DNA of 64,000 bases from NCBI GenBank assembly GCA_037146775.1, contig JBAWWL010000009.1:4575-68574 (forward strand). The letters are read 5' to 3'. The notes beneath the pieces are model-generated. The model saw only the letters and a program-made list of their open reading frames with translations, searched no databases and was not told where the DNA came from. Made by a program: the position numbers and the translations under genes. This DNA comes from Candidatus Omnitrophota bacterium (lineage in GTDB: Bacteria; Omnitrophota; Gorgyraeia; Duberdicusellales; 4484-171). Shown piece after piece: positions 1 through 23,300 of the stretch (positions within the stretch are counted from its first letter, which is position 1; each line of letters opens with the position of its first letter).

Positions 1-2350
1 ACCAACTTAGCCTTGCCGCCTTTAGATTGATATTCTTCAATATACTTCTTCGCAATATCTCGAGCCGCATTGGCAGCGCCTAAACTTATAAACAAACGCA
101 TCCAGCTATAGGCATCTCGGGCAGTAACGTGCGCGGGCCGGCCGTTTAAGTAATGCCAGATTTTCTCCATAGAACCATTTGCATCTTGTCCATCAAGCAT
201 AACCGGAACACATAATGGGTTCTCATATTCGGTCATGACACGAACCCAGCTCTCAACGGTTTGTTTTGCATTCTGCACAGTTAAATCACCTAAATACTTT
301 AAGTTAAAATCTAAATAACCGCCTGACTGCCGGACAAATTGCACAAGAGGAACAAAAAATTGCTCATCTTGCATTTGAGCTACCGTAAGCCCACTTTTCA
401 CTAAATTAGCCGTAACATGTAATCCTCGGTATTCTTCTAATGGTTGACAAGCCTGTAGTAATTTTTTGTTAAAGGCCTCAAGTTGAACTTGAGCCTGTTG
501 TAAACTTTCCAAAACTGTTGCCGGGTTTAAGGCAGCAAATAGCCTAAAGGCTCGAATCATACTGTTGCAGCTCAAAGAATCTAAACCTCTAATATTTGTT
601 AGCGCTTCTTGCAATAACAAATTCGCTTCTTCTCTGCGGCCGACCTGGACTAACGTTTCGGCGATATGAACAAAAGCCTGCGCTCTATATCCATCAACTT
701 CGCTCCTGCCTACGCTTCTTGTTAAGTTAAGCAATCTGTCCAAAGCACCAGCATTTATCATTTCTTGGCTGATTAATTGAATAACTCTTCCTTGCAACAT
801 ACCATCATTTAACTCTGTAATAACTCTTGCCTCGTTTGTTCTGCGAAATTCAGCAGCCACTACCTGAGCCACTACCAAATATGCCTGGCTATACATATCC
901 CTATAGCTAACCTGCCTGGCCTCCTGTACTGCTTCATCAAATCTTCCTCCCTTAGCTAATTCCCGCGCTAAAGCCATATGCGCTATGGCTCTACCCTGAG
1001 AGCCGCCGGTATTATTAGGAGTCCAGCCTCGATTACTGTAATCTTGATAACCCTCTACTTTGTTTGCCGCTACTGCCAGCCGGGCAATAGCATCCAAAGC
1101 TTTACCTCTTGTTTCATCCTTAAGCTGATTGATAAATTGGAACGTTTCGTTCCATAACCCTAATTGACTTAAAATATTGGCTACCAGGATACAAAAATCT
1201 TCATCGACATGAGAAGATTCTGCTTCCCGAATAGCAGCATCAACATACTGTTTCGCTTGAGTATTGCGTCCTAATAAAATTTCTAATTCTGCTATCAACG
1301 CAAAGACTTCGCTTCTTTTATATTTCAAAGAACTGCCTATGTTCGAAAGCACATCGCGATCAAGTATTCGCCCAGCCTGTGCCTTATCGCCGGATAAGGC
1401 CAACTTCTTGGCTATATATAATAAAGTAGATAGCCGTAAATCAGTTCTCATAATACGACCTGCGCTCCCTAAAGCTTCTTGCATTTTATTTTGATCAGCG
1501 TAAGCTTCACTTAAAGAAATTAGGATAATCTCGTTAGCTTGCATTCTGGTAATCTCATCCGGCCTGTTCCTCGCGACTATCTGCCTGGCTATCAACTTTA
1601 AAACTTTTTCTTGATCATAATCATTTTTCAGAAGTTTAACAATTTTTAATACTGCTTCTGTATCTTTTTCTGCTAAACCTTCGGCTATTTTTATAAGCGT
1701 ATCTGTACGATCGTAATCCTTTGATATTTTTTGCGCTAATGCAATACCTTGATCAGCAGATATCTTTCCGGAAGTGACTAAATACACTAATAAATCTCGG
1801 TAAGAATAAATATCTTTCGCAGAATCAATACCTCTAAGTATAGCCAATGCCTCATCTGTTTTGTTTTGCTCAGCCAAACTAATTGCAAAATAAGCAAGAT
1901 AATGCCCTTTATTTTCTTTTAATCTTCTTGAGCCTGCGCTTTGAATTGCCTGCTGTACCTTTTCTATTCTATTTATAGTTATTGCTGCTCTGGCTATAAT
2001 TGCCGGGTCAGAATAAGGCTCTTCACTTTTCTCAATAGCGCTAAGCAGCATTTCCTCTGCTTCTTGGCTTTTAGCTAATTTTGCATATACCTCCGATATT
2101 CTTGCTCTTATCGGCGCCTCGTTATATCCGGAAATTCTACCCTTGGCTAGTTCTAACAAATCTTGCGCTTTCTGTAAATTTCCTAATTCAGCATACATAT
2201 CAGCCAATTCGACTAATTCATGCGATGCATTACCGTTATATCCGTCACCGCCCATTGTCACCAAAGCAAAAGCCGATAATGTTATTTTTTCTGCAATCTG
2301 GGCTCGAGCCTGAACATTATCTAAAACCGCTTGGCCTCTATCCGAAAAAG
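1..2350 (-). other. TPR/Sel1-like helical repeat region at the C-terminal part of giant gene 2 visible in the window. It continues beyond the window.
   Basis: Hand translation shows a degenerate ~34-40-aa helical repeat pattern (...EALAILRGIDSAKDIYSYRDLLVYLVTSG...). It ends DIAKKYIEEYQSKGGKAKLV at position 1. Confidence 0.45.
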
Positions 2351-5300
2351 ACAGCGCACTCGACGCCTTTCCTGACCTCAAACTCTCCTCTGCCGGGCTC
2401 TCAGTGTACTTTTCCGGATGCTGGTGAAAGTCTACATAGTTAGCATCCATAAAAGTTTTGAATTCTTCCCAAGATAAGGTGTAGCGGGAAAGATAACGCG
2501 GAAGTTCAGTTTGAGATATTTCTCGAGGTTGGGGTAAAAGATGAACACCGCGCTTTTTAGCATCATCAAGATAAATTCTTTGTTTGATTCTTACTGCTAA
2601 GAGATTTTTTCTATCATTATCTTTTTCTAAAATAATATTAAGATAATCTTCATGATAGACTCCTTCTAAAAATAAAGTTTCTTTATAGGGATACGTACGC
2701 GCTGTACCTTTACGTAAAACTAAACTCCAATTGATACTACCTAAAATAATCGGCCAGTCGTTCTGTGCGAGAGCCGCCTGTGCTTCAAAATATGCTGTTC
2801 TGAAAGCAGATGATCTTAAGTATGTCTGGCCAATTTCCTTAGCCATACTTGCCTCACCCTTCTCTACGAAGCGGAACATCCAAGAATAGACCAAAACAGA
2901 ATCTGAAAAATCACCTATTTCCGCAAATGCTTGAACGATATCAAAAGCCTTGTTAAATAATTTTCGTTCAAATAATTTTTCTGCTGCGGCTGAAGCTATA
3001 GACAGAAGCTCTGGATTACCTCTGGCGACACTTCCTAATGCAACGGCTAAATCACTAAGTAGAAAATAATCATTAGCCTTAGCAATGGCGGCGGCCAAGA
3101 AACCTGCCTGCTCCAAGTTAAACTTTGTCCGACTACTGGCTTTTTTGGCAATATGGCGCAAGGCAGACGCAAGCAATTTCATAGTTGCGTCGTCTTGAGA
3201 TTGATTTAAAATAGTAAAAATACCGTCTAGCCCCTGAGGGGTAGTTATTTCAATCCAATCAGTTTGTTGACACGCAGTAGCTAAAGCATCTGCCAGACGA
3301 TATTGTGTCGTTGGTTCTTTTTCTATTGCCAGTTTAGCGATAAGTTCTTGGTATGTTTCGCCTAACGCACTCGACGCTTTTCCTTTACCTCTTGGCCTCA
3401 AATTCTCCTCTGCCGGGCTCTCATTGTATGTTTCCGGGTGCTGGTGGAACTCTTGATAGTGAGTATCCATGAATGTTTTGAATTCTTCCCAAGATAAGGT
3501 GTAGCGGGAAAGATATTGATTGAGGTTTCTCCTGGTGATATCGCTAAAAGGTTGAGCAGGAAGCCCTGGAACTTTTCTCGCTCTGGCATCAGCGTGATAG
3601 ATTCTGTTTTTAAGTTGAACTGCCAGGAAAGATTGTTCCAAAGAATCTACTCCCACCACCACATTAATATATTCTTCAAGGTATGCTCGGTCTTTTAATA
3701 ACTGCCAATCAATACCGTCTAAGATAATCGGCCAGTCGGCTTCGGCCCTTTCAACATCACTGCTATGCAGGTTACCGGAAGAATCATGGAGATATCTTGA
3801 CGCCATATTAATAGCCGCCTGTGGTTCTCCCCAATGTATAAGCATCCGCATCCAAAATTTAAGCTCGTGCGGCTCTGAAGAATCACATGGAAGCATTTGT
3901 CGCAGATGATGTATATATACTGGGGTCGCCATTCGTTGGAATACTTCTTGCACACGAGAATAAACTTGCGGATTATTCGCCGCAATCTGGCCTAAAAGGA
4001 TCAAAATATATTCAGGAGCTAAATCTTTAGCGCGACTTAAAGCTTCAATAATTTCATCCAAATGTAAGTCCTTACTGGCTAATGAGCGATCATTGATTAA
4101 TGCTTCAATAAGTGCTTCTGCGTATTTTTCCCGCGTTTTATCGTCTTGAGTCTGTTTTAAGGCCTCAACTAAACTAAGCACCTGTGTGTGAGAAAGCTTA
4201 AGAGAACGATTTTTGCGTAATACTGCAAATACTAATAGAGAAAGAGAACGAGAAAAACTCTGGCTTTGACCAGGTTGGCTTACAAAAACAAGAAGCCGAT
4301 TCATTTGTCCTTGACTAAATGGTACTAAATGGTCTTCACCACCAAGAGCAGTATAGAGCGCATTAATAAAGCTTTCCCGTACTAACGGATCCTCGGCCTC
4401 TTCAGCGCCAACAAGAAGCCGTTCTAATTGTTCGGGATGGAAACGCGCTGAAGATCCCAAAACGCCGTCAAGACTATCACGCAAGCCAACCGCAGGACTA
4501 TTACGGAAAGTGTCAAATAAACTATCAAATTGTGCTTGCAAAAGTGGTAGTGAGTGATTTTCTCTTAAAACATCGGATAAAACAGAACAAAGGATTTGTC
4601 TTGAATGCATCGTGTTGCCTGATTCGTTGATATTTCTAACAATATGCTCAAGCAATATAGGATTCCTTGCAGCTTGACGAGAAAGCCTTTGGATACGCTT
4701 ATCACCAATCGTTGTTTTAACCATAGACATAAAATTTTTCACTGTTCTCTGAGCATTTTCTTCTTTACGTTGCCTCCACCACGATTGCACCGCAGCTACT
4801 CCCCTTTGTATCGCTTTTCTCAAACTCCAAGATCCCTGAGAGACGGGAGGCTCTTGCTGTAAAGCCGATGATGCACCAGAAGCTTTACCTTTCTTTGGCC
4901 TTAAACTTTCTTCTGTTGGGCTTTCAATATACTTTCCCGGATGCTGGTGAAAGTCTGCATAGTTAGCATCCATAAAAGTTTTGAATTCTTCCCAAGCCTC
5001 GGTGTAACGGGAAAGATAACGCGGAAGTTCTGTTTGGGATATTTCTCGAGGCTTAGGCATAGGCTGCACACCTCTGGTCTTAGCATCATCACAATAAATT
5101 CTTTGCTTGAGCCTTACTGCTAAAAGTTTTTGGACTTCTGAATCGCTATTTGTTACTACTGCGATATAGCCGTCACGATATTCTTTTCTCTCAAAAAGGC
5201 TTCTCTCAATATGATTTAGGATAATCGGCCAGTCAGATTGGCCCTTCGCGGCTTCCTTGCTTAAAAACTCAGGGTTATGAGCTAAATAAATTTCTATTGC

Positions 5301-8300
5301 TCCTTTTGCTGTCTCCTTTATGTGCTTTTCATAAACTGAAGAATTCATGATTGCCCCCAGAACAACCATAAGCTCTTCTATGGCATCAAAAGCGATTTGG
5401 TTACCCTTTACAGCTGCAGTCCTTAATGCCCAGATTGCTGAGTTTCTTATCCCTTCAGATGTTTTAACTTTAATGATTTCTTTAAAAATATCTATAAGCT
5501 CATTAATAGTAGCAATTGCGGCCTGATTTCCTCCTAAGGCTGCAGCTGCCAATCTTGTCATCACTTCCTCTTTTACTTTGTCCGAATATTGAGAGGTAAC
5601 GATTAATTTTAACGTAGCACGTATTTTTCCGCTAGGATCACCGTTGGATGAAGTAGTTATTAATTGGTTGATTGCGGCAATTCTGTCTGGATTTGTTTTG
5701 GCTTCAAAGAATTTACCTATCATTTCATCTAAGGTTATTCCTACAGCACTAGACGCTTTTCCTTTACCTCTTGGCCTCAAGCTTTCTTCTGCCGGGCTCA
5801 TCGTGAATCTTTCCGGATGCTGGTGAAAGTCTGCATAGTTAGCATCCATAAAAGTTTTGAATTCTTCCCAAGCCTCGGTGTAGTGGGAAAGACATAAAGG
5901 AAGTTGTGCTTGGGATATTTCATAAGGTTGAGGTAACGGATTAACGCCTCTGGTTTTAGCATCGTCGAGATAGATTCTTTGTTTGAGTCTTACGGCCAAG
6001 AGACTTTGTGTATTCGAATCCATATCAGCCACTACCAACAAATAATCATTAATATACTGTTGCCGAATGAGCAGTGCACCATCAATACCACTTAAAATAA
6101 TCGGCCAGTCGGCTTCAGCTCTTGCAACTTCCCTAGTTAGAAACTCTTGGTCATTGTTGTATAAAAGGGCTTTTATCGCACCTCTCGCTGTTTCTTTGAT
6201 TTTTTGAGATACTTGAGAGGCGATAATCTGCTTAAGAGCAATAATGGCAGGTAGGCTAGCCCGATGGGTAGCAAAACATAATGCCCAGATTGCTGCGTCT
6301 TTTATATGCTCAGAAGCCTGGGAAATAACAATATCTCTTAAGGTATCAGCAAGCTCCTCTATGGCAGCAATAACAGGTTGGTTGCCGTAGTAAGCAACAA
6401 CCCTTAATGCGGTAATTGCTGACACTCGCATATTTTCAGAAGCCTGGGAAATAACAATATCTCTTAAGGTATCAGCAAGCTCACCTATAGCAGCAATAGC
6501 TACAGGTTGACTGTCGCTGAAAGCAGTTTTACTTAACCCATCAATTGCCGTTTGCTTTATATATTCAGAAACTTCAGAATTAATAATTTCTTTAAGAGCA
6601 ATAATTACGGAATCGGCGCGCCTATGCCAAACGGGAGCAGACCTCACAATATCTCTCAATTGCCAGATTGCTACACTCCTCATATCTGCAGAAACCCGAG
6701 AAGTAATGATTTCCTTGAGGGCATTAATTGGGGATTGTCTATCTTTTGCAGCAGCAGCTCCTAATGCTTTAATTGCTTCTTCTTTAGTGTCTGGGGCAAC
6801 TTGAGAAAAAACAATCTCTTTTAAGGTATTAGAAAGTTCTTCTATGGCCACAATCGCGGGCTGACTGTCATGCAAAGCAGCAACTTTTAAGCCAGAAATT
6901 GCTATGTATTGAATATGGATACCTCCGGAAACTTGGGTAATAATAATCTCCTTAAGGGCATTACTGGCGGGCTGACTGCCATACCTAGCAGCAACATTCA
7001 ACGCTCGAAGTGCTGTTAATCTTATCCCCGCAGAAGCTTGGGAGATAATTATTTCTTTTAAATTATCGACAAGCTCTCCTATAGCAACAACAGAATATTG
7101 GCTCTCATACAAAACAGCATTCTCTAATGCTTCAATTGCTGCTCGTCGTATACCTTCAGGAACTTGCGAAGTAATTATTTCCTTAAGAACATCTATTGCG
7201 GGCTTTCTATCCTTGATAGCAGCGTTATACAACGCTTTAATTGCTTTAAGTTTTACTGATTCTGCATTAGTTCCTAAAACCTTATTCTTATTAATCTGCG
7301 CACTTAAAATTATTTGAACTTCCCTATGCGCTTTCCACTTCGCAATTAAACCCTTTACTATTGCTTTACCTTTTGCTAACAGCCGCTGTAAACCATTTTG
7401 CTTATCCGGTTGGGTTGTAAGCGGTGAGGAAGATGCTTTGGCCTGGCTGGTAGATAACGCGCTGGAAGCAGCTGCCTTAGATTTATCCATAGCGCTTACC
7501 ACATGCCCCACGTCACCTTCTAAGCCATGGCCCTCAACCTGTAATAATGCTATTTTTAGTAAGGTTTCTAGGTAAGCTTCTATTGACTGTTCTTCTAGAT
7601 TAATCCGGCAGGGATAATTTTTCCTTAATTTCTCGCCACCATCATCTAAGGCTACACCGGCAAACACAAAATCTATTTGCTGATGACTGGAAGCCTGTAT
7701 TTGAGGTTTACCTGTGGCAGTAACATATTTACCATGCTGAAATTGCTTAATTTTTTCTTGTAAGGCTTCACCCATCACCTGCGGCGATACAGCTTGAGCT
7801 TCATCTCCATCAGTTGCTACCACTACTAAATTTTTCACATCCTTATTACCTGCCGAAGGAAATTCAATGTCACTTAAACCATTCAAAAGTGCTTGGCCGT
7901 CAATACCGCCACCGTCAATGTTTTCTGTCCATATTCTATCCAGAGCATCAACGATAAGTTGGCGTTTAGCCTCATGGGAACGCGCGGCCTTCCATTGCTT
8001 AAAATCAAAAAGAGGGGTAAAACGCGTAGTAATCACCGCTACGGAGATATTAAGGTCGGGATTAATACGCGAAAGCTCAAGTAAGTTAGTAGCATATTCA
8101 TAAATCATATCTTCCAAGGCTCTTTGAAGTACGGGTTTGCTCGTAATACTGCCGCTGGCATCTATCACAAACATGATATTTTGTGCTAACAATTTTTCTT
8201 CGTCTTCAAATTGAGGAGCAATAAGTACCCGGTCATAATCTCCGGCAGCCAAAGCCTCAGGATCGATGTCGGTTCCTCCGTCAGACACATGTTCGTAGTC

Positions 8301-11300
8301 TGCCTCGTAATCATCATCCGTTGGCGCGATCAATTTCTTGTATCTCTCCAGCCACTTACGCGATGAAGCTGGAAGTTCCCTACGGGAAACTCTGGCCAAG
8401 CGTTCGCGCCGCTCTTGGCGCTCATCAACTACTTCTTTCTCTGGCGGTAAATCGCTCAAGTCAGTCTCAGCCACATCTATTTCTCCGATATTAATAACCT
8501 TGACATTTGGCGTAAAGAAAAGTTTTCCGCTACTCAAATCAAAATTATGGGTAGCGCCAGCCATATTCACCGATAATTGTTGTATATAATAAAACCCGCG
8601 CTGCACATCCGTGAAATATTCTGCTGGTTCATTTAAAAATAGCATACACAATTTGACAATTTCCGAATCAGACAACCCATCGATCAAGCGTACTGCTACC
8701 TGGATATTATCTTCTTCAAAATCTGTGCTGATACGGGCTTTAGCGTGCGCCTTTAAAAAAGCATTTAAAACATCCCTTGCCGCTAACGCATACGCATCAT
8801 CGTCAGCCCGGCGATTTCTGATAGCAGCAACCAAGACATCACGCACATAAGCTTTAGGATTTGGCACTAAAAGTAAAGGAAATAATGTTGACAACAATTC
8901 TCCATTTTTATGCAACCGCTCAGCCAACGCAGCGTTTTCAGGACCGATTTTTTCCGAAACTAAATGCCCAAGCTCATGCGCGGCAACTTCATATTCTTTC
9001 TCTGTATTGTTTAAAAACGATACTACTGCGTCACCTTCACTGTTGAAATACCCTAATGTTCCATCCTGCGGCCTAACCACAACAATTACCTGAGGATTGT
9101 CATTGTCGTTAAAAACCTGGCGGTATTTATCACCTAAAACATGACGCAACCGTTCGCTACCCATATTCAACATGCGTGCTATCGGTAAAGCGCTAAATCC
9201 TAAAATAGGCCGGCCGCGCCAACGAAGCACCTTGTCACGGCTGTTTTCTAGATACACTTTATTTTTTCGGGCATTGCTTTCCAGTTTGCCTAAACAAATA
9301 GCGAGCCCTTGGATGCTCGTGGTAGACTGACGATAATAATCATACAATTCGCCCACTATAGTGGCTAATTCCGAATCAACGCTCGCACAAAGCGCAACTA
9401 TTTCTCTTAAAAGCCCAGAATCAACTGCTTCTCTCGCCATTCCTACAAATGCCTTAATTAGAACTCTATTCACTAGCCCGGCATATTTTTGCTGCTGACT
9501 CAACGCAGGGCTTGCCAAAGAAAATTCTTGCATACGCGCACGTAAATCTGCTGGATCAAAAGAAACTTGTTCTCTAGCCTGTTTGGCTGCCTCTTGCCTT
9601 TCTTCTTCACTTACTGTTCGTTTTAACTTTTCTACTGGTTGTTGTGGGTAATGCTGCTGAATCTCTTGCGCTAAATCTGCCAGCGGTTTAGGCGTTATAT
9701 CCGGGACCCGTTCTACCGGAAATGCTTCATTTTCGACGGCAAAAAATCCACTGTCGGGAACTTCTTGAGTAAATTTTCCTGCCTGCTCTAATTCGCTCAT
9801 CCGCCGTGCTTCATTCTGGCGTTTAAAGTATGCTTCGCCACGGCGGTCTACTCCGTCCATGATTCCATAAGTTTCGGTTTCACTGTAACCGGTAGCGGTA
9901 ATATCAGTTTTGCTATAGCGGCTAAGCGGCTCGCTGGTATAAACTTTTAAGCATTTGCGGCTAAAAGGTGCTGGGAATGCATAACGGTTAGACCCCTTGC
10001 CGGTTCCGCCATAGCGTTCAGGAGGATTGTAGGTCAGGATAATGTCTAACTCTTTATCCAACACTACCTCTACGCTATCTCCGGCAGGAGTTATTAAATT
10101 GAATTTCCTTTCTCCGCGGGCAATCGCATCCAATATATACCATACATCACGGGTAACATTCGCCTCGTCATAAAGGATACGAATACGGTTTGAGGTCGGA
10201 TATGCGGTATTGATACGCTTACCATTGACTGTACCGCAAGAAAGCAAGAAATCAGCTACGCTCATCTTCACGGTTTGGCCAAAAGCAAGACTAACAGTAA
10301 TATGGCTATCGCGCATTTCCCGCCAGGGATTAGTGCGAACCAACGGTGTTCCTTCAGCCCTAGGAAGCATCCTGGCTAAAGTAGTTTTTCCACTGCCGGT
10401 TTCTCCGGCAACCAGAACAATACGGCTGGGGATAAATTTCCCGTTTGCGGCCACGACCGGAGTATGCGCCTGTAGTAATGCATTCAAGGCATCAAGCAAC
10501 GAATCCGCCGGATACATAAAATCATCAACGCTCATTTCTTCAAGAGGAACAGCGCGCCTTTTATTCTCTTCGTTACTGCTAAAACGATTAGCGCCTACAG
10601 CGCAAATAATATTGAGCCTTAGAGTGAGAGTATCGCCTTGACGAACAATACTCAAACCATCGGATAATTTCCTTTCTTCGTTATTGGATAGCTCCTGCCA
10701 GGAAACCTCATAGCTATCAGCATCAGTAAGAATATTTAAGCTATCGCCGCGCAAACACACTTTCATTCCATTAGCCAGTTTATAAACCCGTTCGGAAAAA
10801 TCTTCTAGATTCAGTGTTTTTGGATATACCTCTCTGGGAAGACCACGTTCCTGCTGTACGATTTCCCCCAGTAAACCGCGGCAATATTTGATAAGCTGGT
10901 TATTATCGAGCCCGCTTAAACGGCTGGCTAATATTGGCGCTAAAGCCTGTTCCAAGAAAACTTTGCGGTCTTCCGGACACATGGCTGCAAATAAAACATA
11001 ATACGTTGCTTTCATTGCATACCAGAACGGATCGTTGTGTACCGCACCACGGCCGTGGTCAATTTGTTTAAACATCTGCAATCTCAAAGCCATCTCGCTA
11101 AGATCGTGCATACTAAATTCATATCCCTGCTCAAATCGCCGCTGAGCACAAAATGCTGCAGCTTGCTGGTTAACTTCCACAAGAAACCTGGTTTCTTCCA
11201 AGGTAAGATTAGGATAAAGCTCCGACAAGACTGCGTGCGCCTCTTGGGCATTATTAAAATCAGGTAAACCGATTTTTCGCAGGCGGTTAGCAAAAGGAGA

Positions 11301-14300
11301 AGTAAGCTGCCTCATATCTGAAGTTATCGCAACAATAGTCACCCAAGAAGGAAGCACAAAGGTAGTTAAGTTCCCTGCATCGTCCTTAAGAATAATAGTG
11401 CGGCTCTGTAAGAGCTCGTTTAATTTTACCAGCTCATTTTTAGGTATGGATTCTACGTTAGTGATAGCTATAAGTACAGGAACCTGTCTCGCCGGAGGTA
11501 TACTGTCAAGCTCTTCCAGGGTCACGAGATGCCGGCGCAATGGCCCGTGTGCCGGGCGAAAACTATCTATACTAGCGGTGCGCTCGCCTTCATCATTAAA
11601 GTCTGCATCAAATGCGAAAGATTCTCCTACCAAAAGGCCTTTCGCGGTAGTAAAGGGGCTGCCTTCAACTACCTCCATTTTTCTTCCGGTTTTACGTGAA
11701 AATAATTTAAGGAATTCTACTCCTCCTACGCTAGGAGATTCATGAAGTAGAATTTGTTTTCTACCCAAAACCCTGCCCCTATAAGTTGCTTGGCCGCCGG
11801 TTAAAAGCATACACTCCATGGCTCTAACTTTACGCGCCAACGTGGGCGATTGTTCTAAATGCGTCACTTCTTCCTGGCTTACATCTGAATTACCACGATC
11901 TACAAGTTGCATCCTACTAAAATCAGGCATTCTAAAATCAGGAAAAACTTGTCGCACCAATTTTTCGGCAATTTCATATTCAACCTCGCTTAGTCCTTCC
12001 AGATAATTTACTGCTATAGCCTCATATATAGCTTCAAGCCTTTCGGCGTCTGCATTTACCCCGCGCTCTCTAACCATCTGCACCGCATCAATTAAATCGC
12101 GTGGGCTAATCATCCTGCGCTGAGGATGGCTACGACTAAGTAAGATGTGTAACCGCGCCATTTCAGTCTTTAGGCCATCGTCAAACTGGGCGTCCTCTAA
12201 GTAATAATTAATGAGCATAACCGCATCTTCCAAAGAAAGTACATTGTCAACTCTGATTTTACCTACGCTGAGATCAATTTCCCGCGGTAGCGGCTTACGG
12301 CTCCCAGTTTTAAAATGATAGTTCTGAGTGATAATAAAACAAAATCTGGGATCTCGTTTCACAATAATACCTTGTAACCCCGGATGATACGTACCTAAAT
12401 CTATTTCTTCCTGGCTGGCCGCAGAAACGATCCAACGTAATACCTGCCCTGCCCCTTTACTCACCATACCTTCATCGGCAACATATTGACCGCCTTCGGA
12501 ATACATGCGTAAAAACGGTAATATATATCGGCGGCCGGCATCTTTTTCTAAAGTATTAAGCACAATTTCTTTTCCACGCAAGGTTAAGCCGCCCAAAGCA
12601 GTACCTAAGGTAATGCGCCTAAACATTCCTTCTTCATAATAATCTTTGCCTTCGGCGTTAGCAGCATCGCGCGCACCGGAAGTCTTGCCTCCTCCCGGAT
12701 CGCCCTCAAGCACTACACTCATATTATCGTTACCAAAAAGCATTACACTGGCCTGCTGAGCTAGGCGGCTCTGTAGCGGTGCTTCCAATCTCACCGGTAT
12801 TATTGAATCTGCACGATAAAAATTATAACGGCCGAATTTATCTAATTCTTTAAAATCACTGTATTCTGTAGCTTGTCGAACCAAAACTACAGGTTTGCCG
12901 GAAACTTGTACAATAATTTCATAATAAACCACGCCTCCTTCTAAAGAAAAATTAGGGCTATAACGTAGTTGGCTAATATTGAGATGTGTTGCCGCTAAAT
13001 AAGCCTGACGGTAATCTTTGTGTTCCCGACTCTGATCAGCATCTTCCTCTTGCTCCACTAAGCCCATGGCTAATATATGATAACCCAATAATTTTATCGT
13101 AGTTTCATCAAGGGTTCCGGCCTGATGCCGGCTTAAGATTTCCTTTATAAAAAGATCTATTTCTGCCCGGCCTAAACGGTTATGCGGATAAAGCCCGTTT
13201 ACCTTTTGCTCTTCATGTAGCTGCCAAGCAGCCTGCACACACTCAAGCGCCGCCTTCCTTAAACCACTTTCCCTGATACTGGCCAATTGGCCATCTGCAT
13301 ATTGCGATACCCATCCTTTATTGAATTCGTGAGAAACATTAACCGTAAAAAAGCGGTCCACGTCAGCCGGATGTAAAGCAATAGGCTCCTCAGCCATACC
13401 TACCGCCCTAAAAGACAAATTCTTTGGTTTATAGCTAATAATGAATTTTGCGAGCATTCTTTTTTGCTCTGGAGATAAATCTTCAAATCTTTCTGGAAGC
13501 TCTGCGCTAGTTTTGCCTACATATTTCTCGCGGACACGATCAGATTTAATAGCTTCTAAAAATTCAGCGCGGATACGCGAGTAACTTTGATGATATTGTC
13601 CCAACAAAGCCATGACATCATTGACCACATTATCGTCAAACATTTCATCAACCGGTAACATATTGCTAGGGAAAAATTCGTTAAAAAGCGGGGTAACTTG
13701 CGGATTCATATTCAAATATCCCTTAAGCCAGCAAATACGCTCATTACCTTCCAGGTGTGCGCGCAGAATAGTCCAGGCTAAAATACCTAATTTATTTCTG
13801 GGAGCCCTATCCTCAGTAGTACGACTCATTCCTCCGATAAGGCTTCTTTTGGTATGAAAACGGCTGAGATTAACAATTGTATCTTTAATGGCAGTGCCAA
13901 GAATAACCGCATCGCGTATTTCTTTAAAAGTAACTGTTCCGTTGGAAAGAACTAATACCGGTGTTTCCAGCGGGAATTCACGGATAAATTTTAACAGTTC
14001 CTGCGGTGAAGGTGGCGGCGAAAGATCGGTTACTTGCGTCTTGATAATGTTTCTAGCAGTCTCCATATCTTGCGGGTTATCCCACATAAAAACAAATACA
14101 ATATGTAAAAGCATATTAAATGCTTTATCAATCGATTCTCCGCGCTCAATCGCTTTAAACATTAATTCATTAAAATATTCGCTAAGCCTGGGAGTAACGA
14201 GGCGCTTGGACGAAAAATTTCCTGCTAACACTTCTCGGCTAAACGCATTATATACCGCCGAAAGTGTATCGGCTTTGCTTTGTACCATGCTTTCAGTTAA

Positions 14301-17300
14301 CACCATGGGGCTGCTGGCGCTTGATCCAGCCGGCTTCATCCTGGCCATCCGAGCTAAAAACATTGCTCTAGTGATACTGATGATATCAGTCTCGGAACGC
14401 TCCATACAATATGTTGCGGGGATATTGGCGGCTAAAATCGCCGGCGCATCTCTGCGCACGTTTCCGGTAAGGATAGTTATCTGGCCCTGGCCAAAATCTT
14501 TACGATTAAAAGGATTGCTCTCGTCAGTAGAACCGTATTCTAAGCCTAGACGATATGCTCTCGCCATAATATTTGGCGACAGCCACTGCATAACTTTAAG
14601 CCGCGTATCAATTTCATTAATAATATCACCGACCTTGTCGATACTGCGATTCTGCCAATAAGGAGGTTCGCGCAGCTCCACTCCGCGTTTGGCCGCTGGG
14701 TTAATTCTTAAACTGCCGCGGAAAAGCGATAATTCCGTTTCATTATTCAAAGTATACTCCTCCTGCTGGCAGCCAATAATATCTAAAAACACTCTGGCGA
14801 TAGTGGTTTTTCCGCCGCCAGGTAAGCCTTGCAAATATATTACTTTGGAAGGTGAGTAGCGGTAAACTCTGGCTAAAAGACAAAACACTTTCTCCTCGGA
14901 ATTAGTTAGAAAATAATCTTTAGGAAGAACCGCTTTTAGGGCTTCACTAAACGCCGGAACTCTTCCGTCAGTGGCCAATCTCTCGGCGACATGTTTTCCG
15001 AAACGGCTTTCTGGATCAATATCTACTTTTATACCGGCAAATACACTTGTCTTTCCGTCAGCAGAAATCTCAACTGATCCCCGGGGCGCATCGCCAACGA
15101 CACTTCGTAGGGCATTAATAACTTCTGCTTCCTGTAAATCAGAAAATTTTGCCGCCAAATGCATTGCCGCTTCCTGCCTGGCTACCTCAAGTAGCGGCAC
15201 CGTAAAATTGTTATCATTCATCCTGCCGCGCACATAATAAGCAATCTGTACGACATCCTGCACGTTAACCTTATCACCAAATACACGCGACTCTTTAATT
15301 TTTGCGTAAACATTATTTACCAGAAAGTCAGCAACTTCTGCCGTTACGCCAACTCTTAGGGCTAAATATTGCTGTATCTCTTTAGCTTCTAATTCCGCTA
15401 AATAATACCCGGCAGTTCTATCCATGAATGACTCATCGCCGATATCTGCGCTACGCTCCATGGTCAGCACTACTTGCAGGTTATCCGGCAAATTTACTTC
15501 TACTTGCTTACGCCCGCTTACGCTTTCAGCGCGGCGAAGCATAACTTTACGCTCCAGTAACATTTGATGCAAAGAAATACGTACGTCTCCTGACCAAAAG
15601 TTAGGATTCTCTAACACGAAATATACTTGTTTATCAGAATGCGCCAAAGCAAAATCTATAGCCCGCGCTATGGCGCCATCCACAAAATCCATTTCTCCAT
15701 TTGCATCCGGTTGCTCCTTACCAAACAATTCATTGCGTTGGCTAAAACCGCTGATAGTAACCGGGATTACTTCGCTATTGGGCTTACCCGCGCTATCAGC
15801 TTCTTGAGAAAGAGCATCTACTACCACATCTGTAAAATGCCCGGCTGGCACAAAAACAAATAACGGCATATCGCAGGCGCGCGCACGTTCTGCTGCTGCG
15901 CTAAGTTTGCGGTAACTCGGCAGACCGGGTACACTTTTGACCTCTTCTGCTTCCGGACCTAACTTTTGTTCATCCATTTGGAACCTGCCATAATCAAACA
16001 GTTCCAACATCTTATAACGGTTAACTTCGCTGCCGCGCTCAACACCCGCCTCTAAAAACAAATCCTTAAATGCCGGCCTTCTAAAAACTCCCTCTAGCAC
16101 CTCAGCAAACTGTTGTCTGCTTTCCCAAGGAACAAACCGGCCATATATCCCAATCGCTACCATTGCGAAATAGTCAAATACACGGGATTTGGCCAAACGC
16201 ATATCGTGTAAATACCAGCGGCTAAATATTTTCCTAAAACGCATAGATTCGCGGTAACTTACTTCACCCACTGTCTGTAACCTGTGACTTTTTCTGGCTT
16301 CAATAATACTTTCGGTCAATTCCCGGCTTAAACGTTTAATCCTTATTGCCTCATCAGTAGTAAGTTTTGAGCGCTCGCCCATCAACCGCCGGATATAATT
16401 GCGCAAAAATGACTCATGCTTCAGCGTAAGTTCTGTTCTGGTTATTTCAGGATCAAAAAGTTTTGGAAATTCTGTCCTAAACTTAGTCGGAGACAATCCT
16501 TCCCGGGCGACAGGAAATCTTGCGGAAAGATTATGATATATGCCATCAACGAATTGAGGTTTTCTAACCTTTTCCATCAAAAGCTCTTTCTGCTTAAGAC
16601 GTAATATTGCGGTAATTTCTGAGGATAACAACTCCACAATCGCAATCCATTCTCCTCGATAACTCAAGTTTCCAAAAAGCCCGTCAAAGGCAGCCACAGA
16701 AATGCTTCGCACTGCATCAACCTGTCTGGCGGCGACTAAGTCTGTAAGCCAAATAGTAATATCTTCCGGCTTTGCTGTATCATTATCCATTGCTGCTTGA
16801 GCTAACTGAACAGCTCGCGACCAATCCTGTTCATGGATAGCTTCGCTTACGGTTGCAGTTTGGCTAAGCGCACTAGAAGCTTTACTTGGCCTTAAACTTT
16901 CCTCTACCGGACTTTCGATATACTTTCCTGGATGCCGGTGAAAATCTGCGTAGTTAGCATCCATGAATTGCTTGAATTCTTCCCAATCTAAAGTATAGTG
17001 ACTAAGATATTGCTGCAAGTTAGTACGGGTTAATTCGCTAAATGGGGCGGCAGGAAGCACAATACCTCGGGCTAAAGCATCGGCGTAATAGATTCTATTT
17101 TTAAGCCTTACTGCAAGCAGAGCTTGTTCAGCAGGATCAGTATTGACTACCACCGCCGCATAGTCGTCGCGGTATTGTTCCTGCATCAATAATTGTCTGT
17201 TAATACTGTTTAAGATTACCGGCCAGTCGAATTCATCTTTTTGGACTCCTACAGTAAAATCTGTCTCTGGATGTTTATTTAAATATTCTTTCACTATTGA

Positions 17301-20300
17301 CGCGGCCTCAACAAGAAAACCTTTATTGGAGAATGAACGTATCCAGGAATATACTTCAGAAGGAGACAACCATTGAGGATCTGCTTCCAATATTGGATTA
17401 ACTATTGAAACTATAGCGCTTCTGGCAAGTCCTCTATCTAATAAAAATTCTATAGCCTGCTTAGCATAAGACAAATTCTTCTGGCTACCGCGACTTGCCC
17501 GGCCTAAAATAAAAGCAAGCTCATGAGCCACACCAGCTGAACTTGTTTCCTTTAAAGCAGAGAGAGTTTCTTCTAAAATCGAGCTGTTTGTGTTTCTGGC
17601 CTTTTCTAATACATCACGAATATTCTGAAGAACACCAAGATCATTAACCCTTTCCATGGTAGCGACTAAATCTTTTATTTGCGTGCTAGTAAGCGCCATG
17701 GAACGTGTATTCTCTAATATCTGCTGCAATGCCCAGGCAAACGGCACGATAACATTCTGGTCGCTGGATTCTGTAATACCACTCACTAATTTATTAAAAA
17801 ATACATAATTATTGCTTGCTATCGCCCCTATTACTTTTGAAAATTCCCTCCGACTGCGAAAATCTAACTTTTTTTGCCTTAAAATATCAAGTATACGGTC
17901 TGCCTCACTCTCGCTAAGCTGTGAAGCCATACCACGAAATGCATCACTAAATGCATCAAAAAGTTTCATCCGCATAGGATCGTTATCTATTCCGACTCCT
18001 ACCTCACCTATGGCGCTGTATATTTTTTCTGCCAGCATAGGGTTATCAATCATCGCCCGCCTTAACGCGGTTATACTCGATTTATGCGTAGCGTCATCTT
18101 TTGCTGTCTTTATTGCATCCAAAAGCTGCTGAACTTGTTGTGTTATTCTCCAATCGTCACTCGTCGGGCTTGAAGCGCCTTGAGTTTTTATCGTAGATTC
18201 TGGCACTGCGCTCGATGCCTTCTCTGGTCTTAATTTTTCCTCTGCCGGGCTCATCATGAATCTTTCCGGATACTGGTGGAAGTCTGCATAGTTAGTATCC
18301 ATAAATTGTTTAAACTCTTTCCAACCCAAGGTATAGCGACTAAGATAATGCTGCAGGTTGGTTAGGGTTATTTCGCCAAAAGGAGTTACTGGAAGGCTAA
18401 CCCCCCTGACTAAAGCATCAGCATGATAGATTTTGTTTTTAAGTTGTACCGCGAGTAGAGTTTGTTCGGTAGAGTCAGCATTAGCTACTACTGCCGAATA
18501 AACTATTGCTGTATAGTCATGATAATACTGCCCTTGCGTGAGCAAGTTACGGTCAATACCAGATAAAACAATCGACCAATCATTTTCTTGTTTATCAGCT
18601 TCTTTGACTAAAAAGTTGCTATACGCTAAAAATACTTTTATCGCTTCAGTCGCTGCACGTTTAATAGCTTCAGAAGCCTGTGAAGTAATAATCCCTTTTA
18701 AAGTTTCAAGAAGTTCTTCTATGACAGTAACTGCAGCCTGGCTGCCTTTAGAAGCAGCATTACTTAATGCTGAAATTGCCGCTTTTTTTATCCTTTCCGA
18801 ACCATAATTAGTAATGATATTTTTTAGAATTACAGTAAGCTCTCCTATGGCACTAATCGCAGCTTGACCGTCATCATAAGCAACAGCATCCAAGCCTTCA
18901 ATTGCCGTTGCCCTCGTATTTTCTGCAATCGCGGAAGTGACAATCTCCTTAAGCGCGTCGACAGCAAAATTGCTACCACCAGAAACCGCGGCTCTTAAAG
19001 CGTTTATTGCTGGAACATTGATAGTTTCTGAGTTCTGAGAAATAGCTATATCTTTAAGCGCATTAACTGCAGATTGATTATTTCGGCTGGCAGCGATCTT
19101 TAATGCTTGCATTGCTGTCTCAACGAAATTTTGGTGTGAATTTTGCAAATTTAGAGACATAATCATGCCCTTTAATGTTGCGGAAACTTTTCCGATAACA
19201 GTAGCGGCAACCAACGATTGACTATTTTCAGCCACAGAGGCAGTACGTATTAATTCCACAATCACCTCAATCTTTTTTGCATCTGTATCAGCTTCATTGA
19301 ATTGTCTTTCCCACTCTGCTTGTGTTACTTCAACTGCACTGGAAACTTTACCTTTTGGTCTCAAGCTCTCTGTTTCCGGACTCTCGGTGTACTTTTGCGG
19401 ATGCTGGTGAAACTCTGTATAGTGAGCATCCATGAATTGTTTGAATTCTTCCCAAGATAAGGTATAGCGGCTGAGATACAAAGGAAGCTGTATCTTAGAT
19501 ATCTCTATAGGTTCAGGTACAGGATTAACACCTCTCATTTTCGCATCATCACAATAGACCCTTTGCTTAAGCTTAACGGCTAAAAGTTTTTGAGTTACTA
19601 AATCACTATTCGTTACCACTGCGAGATAGTCTTCAAGGTATTGTTGTTGCAAGAGAATACTTTTATCGATATGATTCAGGATAAGCGACCAGTCGGATTG
19701 GTCTTTAGCAGCTTCTTTAGCTAAGAAATCAGGGCTATGTTCTAAGAATATTTTTATCGCTTGAGTTGATATTTTTTTTATTTGCGCAGAAGCTTGAGAG
19801 GCAATAATACCTCTTAAAATATCGATAAGCTCACCCACAACGTCAGTAGCAGCCTGACTGCCCCCAGCAACAGCATTCCCTAAGTTATATATTGCTGATT
19901 GTTTGATATTTTCTGAAACTCTAGAAGTAATTATTTCTTTAAGAGTATTGGCAGCAGCTTGACTATTTCCAGCAGCACCAGCTCCTAATGCTTGAATCAC
20001 TGTTGACTTTAAATCTGCTGAAGCTTGACCAAAAATGATTTCTTTTAAATTTGTAACCAGTTCTCCTATAGCGCTAATGGTAGGCTGATTGCCTCGATGA
20101 GCAGCGGCTCCTAGTGTTTGGATTGCCGATTGCTTTAAAGCTTCAGAAAACTGGCCAGTGATGATTGCTTTTATATTTGTAGCCAGCTCTCCTACAGCAA
20201 CAACAGATGGTTGATTGCCCATAAAAGCAGCGACTCCTAGTGTTTGGATTACTGCTTGTTTTAAAGATTCAGAAGACTGGCCAGTGATGATTGCTTTCAG

Positions 20301-23300
20301 ATTTGTAGCCAACTCTCCTATAGCATCCATGGCAGGTTGACGGCCGCGAGCGGCAGCCATATTCAATGCTAAGATTGCTTCTTGCTTTACAATCTCGGAA
20401 GTTTCAGAGGTAATTATGTCCTTAAGCGCATCAATAGCAACCTGACCACCTCGATGGGCAGCGGCTGCTAATGCTCCGACTGCTGATTGTTTTATGGTCT
20501 CGGGAATTTGCGAGGCAACGATTTCTTTAAGTGCATCGACGGCAAGCTTACTACCTTCCGAAGCAGCAGCTGCTAATGTCAGGTTTGCTGCTTCTTTTAT
20601 GCCCGCTGAAGCTTGACCGGTAATGATATCTTTTAGCTTATTAGCCAGTTCTCCTACGGCGCCAATGGCGGTTTGACTGCCTTGAAGAGTAGCTTTTTTC
20701 AATCTATTAATTACCTCAATCTTCTTTATTTCTGTATCCGCTTCACCAAATTGTCTTTCCCACTCTGCTTGTGTTACTTCAATAGTGCTAGAAGCTTTTC
20801 CTCTTGGCCTCAAACTCTCATCCGCTGGACTTGCAGTATATTTTTCTGGATGCTGGTGAAAACCTAGATAGTAGGTATCCATGAATTCTTTAAATTCTTC
20901 CCAAGATAAGGTGTAGTGGCTAAGATAATACTGCAGGTTGGTTCTGGTTATTTCGCCAAAAGGAGTTGCTGGAAGTCTAACCCCCCTAGCTAAAGCATCG
21001 GTATGATAGATTCTATTTTTAAGTTGGACCGCTAGAAATGATTGTTCTAAAGAATCAACAGCTACCACCACGGCGACATAGCCATCACGGTATTGTTCTT
21101 GCATGAGCAAAGCTCTGTCGATGCTATTTAAAATTATCGGCCAGTCAACCTGCTGGTTGGCAATTTCATGGCTATGTAAATCACTTGCAGAATTTTTCTC
21201 AAGATATTCTTTAGCTAGTTTTTTAGCTTGATCAATAAAACCTCGCTCCATGAATAAACGTACCAGAGAATACATCTGAGAAGAATCAAAAGTTAGAGCT
21301 TTTGCTACGTTGACAAGGGCTGAAGCAAGTATATATAAAATATCGTTAGAAAGGTTCGCTAAGGCTTTTAAAAAATATATCGATAGTGCAGAATTATTAA
21401 CAAGCGCCTGGCTAACAGTTGCTGCAATAGTACCGCGAGTATCTTCAGAGTTATCCCCACGCTTGATAGCTGTAAGAAGAATATCAAGCTGTTCAGGCGT
21501 AAGCTGAAGAGTCCTTGCGTCACATAGTGCTAAATAAATTATCCCGGCTGCATCAATACGATTCTTATCATTAATATCATTGCGTTTTAATTCCTCAAGC
21601 GCCGACGGCAAAAGTTCGTGGTTATTAAACAGCGCCCTGCTAGCTGCTAGAGCGATATTGTTGTGCGCATCGTTACCGCGCTCCTCACTTTTCAAAGCAG
21701 CGACAAGAACACCAAACTGTATGGGCGTCAATTTGAGGCTTGAATTGTTATACAATGTGCGGTTGAGTAAACGAGCAATTTCTTGGTGCGTATTCTTTGA
21801 GTTATCTGGGCGTTGAAAGACTGCAAAGATACTACGCAAATGGTCATGGGTAGGCTTAATCATCCGAGCATCACATAACGCCAGATCTATCGCTTTTATA
21901 AAATCATAGCGGTTTTTATCAGTGATATCATCACGCTTTATTTCATCGAATGCCAAAGATAAAAGTCCTAGATTATTCACTAGTACCAAATGTATTGTTT
22001 CAGCAATTATCTCAATGGTCTTCTTAGAATTATTTGGTTGTTTTATGGCAGAAAAAATAATACTCAACTGCTCCGGTGTTGTCACAACAACGCTATGGCC
22101 ATTTAATATTTGACTGAGCGCCAAAGTAACTTGCGCCCGCTCAGTTTCATCTTGCGCCTGGCTAAGCTTATCAAAGTTAGTATCGAGTTCCCCCTGAGCA
22201 GTTAATGCCGACGATACCACCGGCCCCTTCACTTGGGCTATTGTTTCCTGGACTTTCTCTTCTAACCCCGAGCCCGTATCCAGCATCACCTCTAAATTAA
22301 AGCTCTTGCCTTTATTTGATGAGATTACCCTACTCGGATCATTGGTGATGGTAAGCGCGCTGGAAGCTTTGGTAAAATCACAGCCACCGGAGTAGTAGCG
22401 GCGGTTGATGTTCTGCTGGGTATTGGTATCGAATTCGTCTTTGATGTAGTTGTAGACGCCTTGTCTGTAGGCAGAGAGGTATTGTTTGTAGATCTTCTCT
22501 TTGATTTGTTTATCGGGGGTATCGATACCTTTAGTCTTTTTCCGGTTAACATAGATCTGACCGACTAAGCTTTCTTTGAGCTGCTTTTTAAACCATACGG
22601 AAAGAATTAAAGAGTTGTAGACCTGCCGTAAAGGAGCGAAGTTTTTGCCTTGATTGACTTCTTTTTCGATCTCAGGCAGGATGAGTTCTTTTAAGACTTC
22701 AGAGGAAACCTTGTTTAAGGCTTTTACTTTGTCTTCTTTGATCTTGGAGGTGCTATATTCCTGGTTATTGAGGTTGTTTTTGAGTGCCAGGTAGTCTTCT
22801 TCCAGCATGACTTTGAGCTTACTCTCTACCACAAAGGCGCTTGAATCTTCCTGATAGACCACCGCTTTATCCGGGACAATCCAGATCTTGTTGAAGGTAT
22901 TAATCGGTAGTTCAGTGGTACCATAGAGCTGGTAGACTTTCTTGTATACCTTCTCCCAGAACTGTTTACCTAGAGGACTCTCCGGATAAGTGATAGAAGC
23001 CATTAATTGTTTTAAGATGTAGTCTTCGGCAAGTAGGTCTTTACCCAGCTCCGTAATACCCAGTTCCTGGGGGATGACTCGTTCTTTTTCATAGGGTGAG
23101 AGGTTAACCCAGAGGTCTTCTTCCGGTATGGTTAAAGAGGCCAAGAAGTGCTTGATCAGTTTCTCTGAACTCTGTTTTAGTTCTTTTTGGCTAGAAGTGC
23201 TGTCTCCGCTATCCAGGATAAAGTCAAACTTGAAAGGCTCATCAGGATAGACTTTGATTCCTTTTAAAACCAGAGGGTTGAAAGCCGGGCTTACTTCCAA

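Follow-up and report, generated by a model that had tools for sequence, protein, structure and literature searches.

The 64,000-nucleotide stretch analysed here (the window), from contig JBAWWL010000009.1 of a Candidatus Omnitrophota bacterium (assembly GCA_037146775.1), carries on its minus strand a giant open reading frame (ORF), g2, whose central part encodes a series of AAA+ ATPase modules followed in the same chain by a von Willebrand factor A (VWA) domain. A frame scan of the window found 7,819 codons without a stop from 23459 down to base 3, and this stop-free frame spans 23.4 kb at 42% GC. The C-terminus of g2 lies outside the window, and all statements made on the protein cover its visible 7,818 amino acids (aa); when the first bases of the window were compared with JGI metagenomes in search of the 3' end of the gene, no exact match was found. 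A first-pass annotation, made by reading the window, had reported three Walker A motifs about 700 aa apart, a HELGH motif and the motifs of a VWA domain in a single frame. All of these are present in g2, at coordinates within ~15 nt of those first given; the P-loops are spaced by 708 and 766 aa and no frame disruption separates them. The observation is confirmed. Because none of 2,000 shuffled versions of g2 contained three GxxxxGK[ST] motifs (mean 0.14), their occurrence is not due to chance, and the neighbouring giant protein g1 (6,198 aa) contains no such P-loop.

The P-loop modules, termed U2, U4 and U6, alternate with three degenerate modules lacking a P-loop (U1, U3 and U5), and g2 hence contains six AAA+ modules between aa 2515 and 4545. 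Degenerate units between the canonical ones had been suspected in the first-pass annotation, and profile searches, AlphaFold2 (AF2) models and Foldseek comparisons all support their presence in strict alternation; AAA+ folds around the P-loops themselves are recognised by profile as well as fold searches. The units were delimited by eye, using the AAA_5 pattern hhhh-x-E/N ... L..Leer ... hhhhaT ... F.DR between the P-loops, and then tested, and unit-specific hidden Markov models (HMMs) run over g2 and g1 revealed no seventh module. U2, U4 and U6 are homologues of each other (hhalign 87-93%, E 4e-6 to 2.5e-7), while the degenerate units show weak similarity when aligned unit against unit. Profiles of the midasin modules AAA1-6, built from 30 sequences, were also aligned to the g2 units: U4 matched AAA5 at 99.0% (E 9e-18), U2 matched AAA5 at 96.1%, U6 matched both AAA3 and AAA4 at 97%, U1 matched AAA1 at 95.7% over 228 columns, and U5 matched AAA1 at 68.5%. 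We hold this anatomy of the six-module cassette with high confidence.

Searches with single sequences register only parts of the cassette. Single-sequence Pfam searches confine AAA_5 to the first P-loop and give generic P-loop matches at the third, Pfam and NCBIfam searches with 300-600-aa pieces of g2 return P-loop-level matches and the VWA domain only, and BLASTP of g2 against itself and g1 detects no internal repeats, merely an N-terminus shared with g1. In the PDB, an alignment of seven sequences over the full cassette gave no match and a U1-U3 profile gave P-loop matches only. Midasin surfaced only once a distant relative, P0007 (see below), had joined the U4-U6 profile. With this profile, yeast Rea1/midasin ranked first, over many stretches (E 2e-31, 112 bits), followed by Schizosaccharomyces pombe Mdn1 (E 1e-21) and the MoxR protein NorQ (E 1e-3). 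The best stretch places the large domain and lid of U4 onto Rea1 1689-1953, and part of the degenerate U5 is aligned to the C-terminal half of Rea1 AAA3.

Structure prediction extends this picture to the degenerate modules. The AF2 models of U4-U6 (predicted local distance difference test, pLDDT, 73.7; predicted template modelling score, pTM, 0.71) and of U1-U3 (pLDDT 76.6, pTM 0.66) each retrieve dynein motor domains as all of their top 50 Foldseek matches, over ~1,050-1,150 columns (E 1e-23 to 1e-20), and the match of U5 runs over the full length of the model. Superposed on dynein and midasin, each half-ring forms an unbroken arc, with ~12% identity in the structural alignments. The closest single-module structures are those of NorQ, CbbQ and McrB. 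U1 is modelled as a five-strand core with beta-hairpin inserts, and beta-hairpins between beta2 and beta3 and before beta4 are seen in U1, U4 and U5, the first of them alone in U2. Pfam AAA_5, structures and hairpins agree in assigning the g2 modules to the helix-2-insert/pre-sensor-1-hairpin (MoxR) clade. The models also contain a small beta-rich domain ahead of each P-loop module. Its presence before every one of them suggests a triplicated two-module ancestor, and the ring may have arisen by triplication of a unit in which a beta domain links a degenerate module to an active one.

The conservation of active-site residues was assessed in alignments of 25-66 prokaryotic family members per unit. 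U6 is the most uniform, with K4357 in 65 of 66 sequences and D4430, E4431 and N4477 in all 66. In U4, D3661 is invariant (62/62), E3662 and N3712 are each present in 61 of the 62 members, K3591 in 57 and R3786 in 51. U2 retains G2877, K2883 and E2948 in all 34 members and N2999 in 32, the residue before the glutamate being N or S and not D; given N-E in place of D-E in its Walker B motif, U2 may bind ATP rather than hydrolyse it. In the alignment of close homologues, the HExGH motif is invariant, as are the Walker B residues and each of the three Walker A motifs. The degenerate modules are each conserved at the AAA+ arginine-finger position, in the form of F.DR in U1 (R2680, 28/28), DRF in U3 (R3368, 25/25) and F.NR in U5 (F4055, N4057 and R4058, each 37/37), and U2 is without such an arginine. 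An ATP site in an AAA+ ring is made complete by the finger that the next module contributes, for example between AAA1 and AAA2 of dynein. The combination of Walker motifs in U2, U4 and U6 with fingers in U3, U5 and U1 therefore predicts three composite ATP sites, and the alignments suggest that these lie at the U2/U3, U4/U5 and U6/U1 interfaces. Walker, sensor and arginine-finger residues are near-invariant even though the members are less than 50% identical, which points to selection on nucleotide binding and hydrolysis.

Downstream of U6, the ring modules are separated from the VWA domain by ~540 aa, which include an HExxH domain and a ~50-aa acidic patch, and profile searches of this stretch gave no midasin match. 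In the HExxH domain, H4827, E4828, H4831, N4851 and E4853 are conserved in 29-30 of 30 members, with the NxE element 20-22 residues downstream. The zinc site of thermolysin follows the pattern HExxH...NExxSD, and the HExxH...NxE pattern of g2 is gluzincin-like; a peptidase activity of this domain is putative and inferred from these residues. The most D/E-rich 250-aa block of g2 is that of the acidic patch. The VWA domain scores 31.7 bits in Pfam, above the cut-off of 23.8, and its DxSxS and TDG elements are conserved among family members (D5099 28/28, S5101 28/28, S5103 26/28, D5216 28/28). It had been described as a C-terminal VWA domain with an adhesion site of the metal-ion-dependent type (MIDAS); the assignment to VWA stands, albeit as a generic domain and not as the midasin subtype, and the position does not, as more than 2,480 aa of g2 follow. 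HEAT_2 matches on both sides of the cassette in Pfam bear out the HEAT-like flanks that had also been proposed.

The cassette is not confined to this window. A query with aa 2450-5350 retrieved six collinear fragments of giant proteins at 30-47% identity, the named ones labelled Omnitrophota, and the more distant collinear relative P0007 (4,500 aa), in which Pfam recognises AAA_5 (90 bits), two midasin lid families, a dynein lid family and VWA. P0007 (L010 10001-23503) is complete, lies on a 198-kb contig and has the six-module layout with a HEMRH motif. Directly before its VWA domain is an E/D/G-rich acidic region of ~200 aa, nearer to the midasin layout than that of g2. An HMM search of 1.84 billion representative proteins returned 785 matches at E<=1e-3, 86 of them at E<=1e-30. 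The top ~87 matches are prokaryotic giant proteins of 2,000-7,600 aa; the next ranks, besides fragments, are mostly ~4,500-5,500 aa long with six P-loops at midasin spacing, and from length and spacing these are taken to be eukaryotic midasins. P0001-P0033, P0043 and others retain the order U1-U2-U3-U4-U5-U6-HExxH-VWA, which is seen again on dozens of contigs obtained independently in different projects. Almost all members with a name belong to Candidatus Omnitrophota, and they are annotated only as 'MoxR-like ATPase', 'AAA family ATPase' or 'VWA domain-containing'; members are also present in single metagenome-assembled genomes with the labels Chlamydiota, Elusimicrobia (Ca. Liberimonas magnetica) and Planctomycetales. 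A GTDB scan found relatives at <=53% identity only.

In the literature searched, single-chain six-AAA rings are described only in eukaryotes, namely in dynein, midasin and RNF213 (PMC5100056, PMC7311170), and the six-module protein is said to derive from MoxR early in eukaryotic evolution (PMC3495828). Our search of the literature on bacterial and prokaryotic midasin-like proteins, which did not extend to subscription journals, found no description of any, and papers on Omnitrophota giant proteins name AAA_5 as a frequent domain or leave it unmentioned. To judge from this literature, what is new here would be a conserved bacterial single-chain six-AAA+ cassette with a VWA domain in cis, a type of layout previously described in eukaryotes.

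The likeness to midasin/Rea1 is considerable. Both have six AAA_5-type modules in one giant chain and, after them in cis, an acidic stretch and a VWA domain, the MIDAS being putative in g2; midasin is the best PDB sequence match, and U4 pairs with AAA5, the main hydrolysis site of Rea1 (PMC11603028). However, P-loops are found in U2, U4 and U6 of g2 only, whereas midasin-like sequences have six and AAA2-5 of Rea1 are catalytic (PMC11603028). The linker of Rea1 comprises ~1,700 aa (stem, middle and top), compared with ~540 aa including an HExxH domain in g2, and its acidic region ~600 aa, compared with ~50 aa. The VWA domain of g2, which is internal, aligns with 31 midasin MIDAS domains at an hhalign probability of only 0.5%. 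Furthermore, U1 is the sole unit whose best match is the midasin module in the same position (AAA1); U2 and U4 both pair with AAA5, U6 with AAA3/AAA4 and U3 with none. The signal-like N-terminus, the bacterial host, the HExxH domain and the HEAT arms also set g2 apart. A midasin or MoxR-VWA layout had been proposed for g2 in the first-pass annotation; the multi-AAA+ core with a VWA domain in cis is upheld, but active-site pattern, linker and MIDAS type are unlike those of midasin. Since these features, the acidic region and the module correspondence all differ, the sequence comparison indicates that the cassette is an analogue or distant relative of midasin and is not a member of its family.

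Other AAA+ systems share single traits with g2. The MoxR-VWA pairs NorQ-NorD, CbbQ-CbbO and RavA-ViaA belong to the same MoxR clade, whose Walker A/B, sensor and arginine-finger residues are intact in g2 (with N-E in Walker B of U2). In these pairs, however, a ~270-aa subunit forms a homohexamer and the VWA domain is a separate protein, whereas g2 is a single chain in which half of the modules are degenerate. Dynein gives no sequence-level match to g2 in the PDB profile search, the U4-U5 model shows neither a buttress nor the coiled-coil stalk with its microtubule-binding domain that dynein carries between AAA4 and AAA5 (the longest helices of the model are ~20 residues), and dynein has no VWA domain. 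RNF213 (mysterin) likewise contains a giant single-chain six-AAA ring that is partly active and fused to an enzymatic module (PMC7311170), but is a eukaryotic E3 ligase with two adjacent active modules (AAA3 and AAA4), in contrast to the three alternating ones of g2, and has no VWA domain. FtsH and the MoxR-VWA-peptidase systems resemble g2 in joining an AAA+ engine to an HExxH domain of the zinc-site kind and to an N-terminus of membrane or signal type. For MoxR-VWA-YebA, Zhang and Aravind proposed that the VWA domain recruits, the AAA+ protein unfolds and the peptidase cleaves (PMC3495828). The HExxH domain of g2 is unlike M41, and its AAA+ modules belong to another clade than those of FtsH. 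Omnitrophota giant proteins of the 'Archaeovorin' type (West-Roberts 2023) contain many transmembrane regions and a SecA_DEAD domain, unlike g2, which in its visible 7,818 aa has one hydrophobic helix and no SecA_DEAD match.

We consider it probable that aa 2515-5330 of g2 constitute a self-contained single-chain AAA+ machine, in which a six-module ring with three composite ATP sites drives a VWA domain in cis; the remodelling mechanism by ring and MIDAS is proposed with moderate confidence. The six modules would close into one ring, in which each ATP site would combine a canonical module's Walker motifs with the arginine that the next, degenerate module supplies, an alpha3beta3-like alternation within one chain. 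ATP-driven movements of the ring could then be passed to the tethered VWA domain, which would hold a protein ligand via a putative MIDAS metal site, in the manner of midasin and of MoxR-VWA pairs such as NorQ-NorD. The HExxH...NxE domain, located between ring and VWA domain, might cleave or grip this ligand or the giant protein itself, and the flanking HEAT-repeat regions would serve as a scaffold. Precedents for such a mechanism are Rea1 (PMC11603028), NorQD (PMC13036017) and the MoxR-VWA-peptidase systems (PMC3495828).

Several results weigh against this proposal. Ring closure and the U6/U1 site are predictions, the models covering two half-rings only (U1-U3 and U4-U6); these were built from shallow multiple sequence alignments of 6-8 sequences, and U6 is modelled at low confidence (pLDDT 50-65). 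U3 matches none of the midasin AAA1-6 profiles in hhalign; its sequence resembles no known AAA+ module, and its AAA-like fold is seen in the AF2 model only. No MIDAS threonine can be recognised in g2, which reads GGGIDG where the family consensus is GGGINT, and a profile of the HExxH domain matches no peptidase family in Pfam and the PDB, M41 included, BepA/M48 being marginal at E=1.4. Around P0006 and P0007 and within the window there are no conserved neighbour genes, only housekeeping genes, and no candidate for a ligand or partner was found encoded near the cassette. Finally, the signal-like N-terminus predicts export to an ATP-free compartment, and a conserved ATPase is not easily reconciled with this.

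This last point concerns the family at large. A positively charged stretch followed by a hydrophobic helix, the sole one in g2, opens both g2 and g1. Of 44 long family members, at least 22 start in this way (including P0008, P0016, P0030, P0039, P0047, P0049 and P0062), but none of 42 midasin-like proteins does; an AxA-like site is often present, as in a Sec signal. The N-terminus of g2 thus resembles a signal anchor or a signal of the Sec type, and the membrane anchoring that had been claimed for the protein reduces to this single helix, which resembles a signal peptide. The same contradiction between export and function is reported for the long proteins of Omnitrophota in general, most of which have been predicted to be bound to a membrane or secreted (10.64898/2026.06.07.730766). 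An exported pseudo-enzyme scaffold, secreted via Sec to an ATP-free site and using its AAA+ and VWA folds for structural or adhesive purposes only, would account for these N-termini and for the loss of the P-loop in three of six modules. We nevertheless regard it as unlikely, as the Walker A lysines, the Walker B acidic residues (in U2 the glutamate only), the sensor-1 asparagines, the sensor-2 arginine and the fingers are near-invariant. Those same fingers bear on the possibility that no intramolecular ring exists and that the three P-loop modules act as separate MoxR-like ATPases, forming rings with other copies of the protein, while the rest are spacers. MoxR proteins are usually homohexamers (PMC13036017), and the P-loop regions are all that single-sequence Pfam registers in a protein without internal repeats in BLASTP. 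Yet the supposed spacers fold as AAA+ modules, U1 matches midasin AAA1, the half-ring models form contiguous arcs on dynein and midasin, and an invariant arginine finger in every degenerate module would be expected only where it serves to complete the ATP site of a neighbour, which makes separate ATPases improbable as well.

True orthology of g2 with midasin, or its recent acquisition from a eukaryote, with a role in ribosome assembly, might be argued from the rank of midasin in the PDB search, from the midasin-like proteins ranking directly after the prokaryotic family, and from P0007 with its midasin lid domains and long acidic region. Against it stand the low identity in the structural alignments, the lack of one-to-one module correspondence except for U1 and AAA1, three P-loops where midasin has six, the missing 1,700-aa linker, the internal VWA domain of another type, and the additional HExxH domain, signal peptide and HEAT arms. 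In addition, the ligands of Rea1 are the ubiquitin-like domains of Ytm1 and Rsa4, which act on the eukaryotic pre-60S particle (PMC11603028), and we judge orthology very unlikely. An artefact of assembly or gene calling, by which unrelated genes were fused into one ORF, might be feared in what is probably a metagenome assembly whose window has no match in the GTDB or JGI collections; a stop-free frame of such length and the recurrence of the domain order on independent contigs render it next to negligible.

A single-chain machine with a six-module ring driving its VWA domain, our preferred reading, would give a testable engine to a part of the otherwise unannotated Omnitrophota giant proteins, and the alternation of active and degenerate modules with retained arginine fingers would represent a natural division of labour of the alpha3beta3 type within an AAA+ ring. 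A bacterial family with fused midasin-like modules would be either an independent second invention or a prokaryotic relative, and the origin of such rings thereby becomes testable. A bolder and rather doubtful view, to which we nevertheless give somewhat more room than to any of the alternatives above, is that eukaryotic midasin, and with it the dynein lineage, has its prokaryotic sister group in this mostly Omnitrophota family; a second view of this kind is that these are exported motors using the ATP of prey or host. If the sister-group relationship were true, the single-chain six-module ring with a VWA domain in cis would predate early eukaryotes or have come from such bacteria, contrary to the current view of it as a product of early eukaryotic evolution.

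Table 1. Features of g2 and of its surroundings in the window (beta-rich domains as placed in the AF2 models, hydrophobic helix from a hydropathy scan).
Feature	Position	Strand	Residues (aa) and remarks
g2 giant ORF	3..23456	minus	>=7,818 aa; ATG at 23456; continues past window start
Hydrophobic helix AVALFVAAAIFITALAGYI	23355..23411	minus	16-34; positively charged n-region before it
Conserved N-terminal domain	22152..23351	minus	36-435; after the signal; also in g1 and family members
U1, degenerate AAA+ and lid	14907..15914	minus	2515-2850; no P-loop; FMDR Arg-finger motif, R2680 at 15419-15417
Beta-rich domain before U2	~15074-15021	minus	~2795-2812
U2, P-loop AAA+ and lid	14010..14906	minus	2851-3149; Walker B N-E (IINE, in 14630-14604); sensor-1 N2999
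GLPGGGKTT (Walker A, U2)	14828-14802	minus	2877
U3, degenerate AAA+ with helical insert	12780..14009	minus	3150-3559; ADVDRF motif, R3368 at 13355-13353
Beta-rich domain before U4	~12953-12789	minus	~3502-3556
U4, canonical AAA+ and lid	11805..12779	minus	3560-3884; Walker B YVADEG in 12491-12465; sensor-1 N3712; sensor-2 R3786
GDPGGGKTS (Walker A, U4)	12704-12678	minus	3585
U5, degenerate AAA+, long lid, small beta domain	10485..11804	minus	3885-4324; SPFANR motif, R4058 at 11285-11283
Beta-rich domain before U6	~10835-10605	minus	~4208-4284
U6, canonical AAA+	9822..10484	minus	4325-4545; Walker B ILYDEAN in 10187-10155; sensor-1 N4477
GETGSGKTT (Walker A, U6)	10406-10380	minus	4351
RIRILYDEANV (Walker B region, U6)	10187-10155	minus	4424
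HExxH domain	8577..9389	minus	4690-4960; N4851-x-E4853 at 8906-8898
HELGH	8978-8964	minus	4827
Acidic patch	8187..8339	minus	5040-5090; ~50 aa before VWA; read from the sequence
VWA domain	7467..8204	minus	D5099-x-S5101-x-S5103 (in 8171-8148); T-D5216-G (in 7826-7803)
FVIDASGS (VWA)	8171-8148	minus	5097
VVVATDGD (VWA)	7826-7803	minus	5211
g1 giant gene	23456..42052	minus	6,198 aa; directly upstream of g2; signal and N-terminal domain as in g2
Further genes, part 1	42679-63872 (parts 1 and 2)	minus	ruvB, scpA, class I tRNA synthetase, infB, nusA, rimP, class II tRNA synthetase, ispG
Further genes, part 2	42679-63872 (parts 1 and 2)	minus	rseP, dxr, cdsA, uppS, OmpA-like, tadA, GGDEF-HD, permease, cheY, cheB

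Following the signal-like segment, a domain of ~350 aa (WVNLSPYE ... FSGG) is shared by g2, g1 and at least nine other family members, the latter at 28-47% identity. It has no match in the PDB, Pfam or NCBIfam, and may be a targeting or anchoring module of the giant proteins of this group. Unit HMMs find no AAA+ module in g1. The first ~1,206 nt of g1 and g2 (42052-40847 and 23456-22254) are 97.4% identical at the DNA level, starting within a base of the ATG, and the two N-termini share 92.6% protein identity over 435 aa, the remainder being unrelated. Near-identical 5' ends on otherwise unrelated genes point to a recent duplication or gene conversion of this 5' module. At 23454-23458, the g1 stop codon overlaps the g2 start codon (TAATG), and this overlap suggests that g1 (18.6 kb) and g2 (>23.4 kb) are translationally coupled.

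About 8 kb upstream of g1, a gene for an ATPase of the T2SSE family (type II/IV secretion or pilus) is located at 50422-51672 on the minus strand among housekeeping genes. Secretion and pilus genes have been reported beside giant genes of Omnitrophota (10.64898/2026.06.07.730766). Every called gene of the window lies on the minus strand, and the GC skew is steadily negative, which marks a chromosomal context within one replichore.

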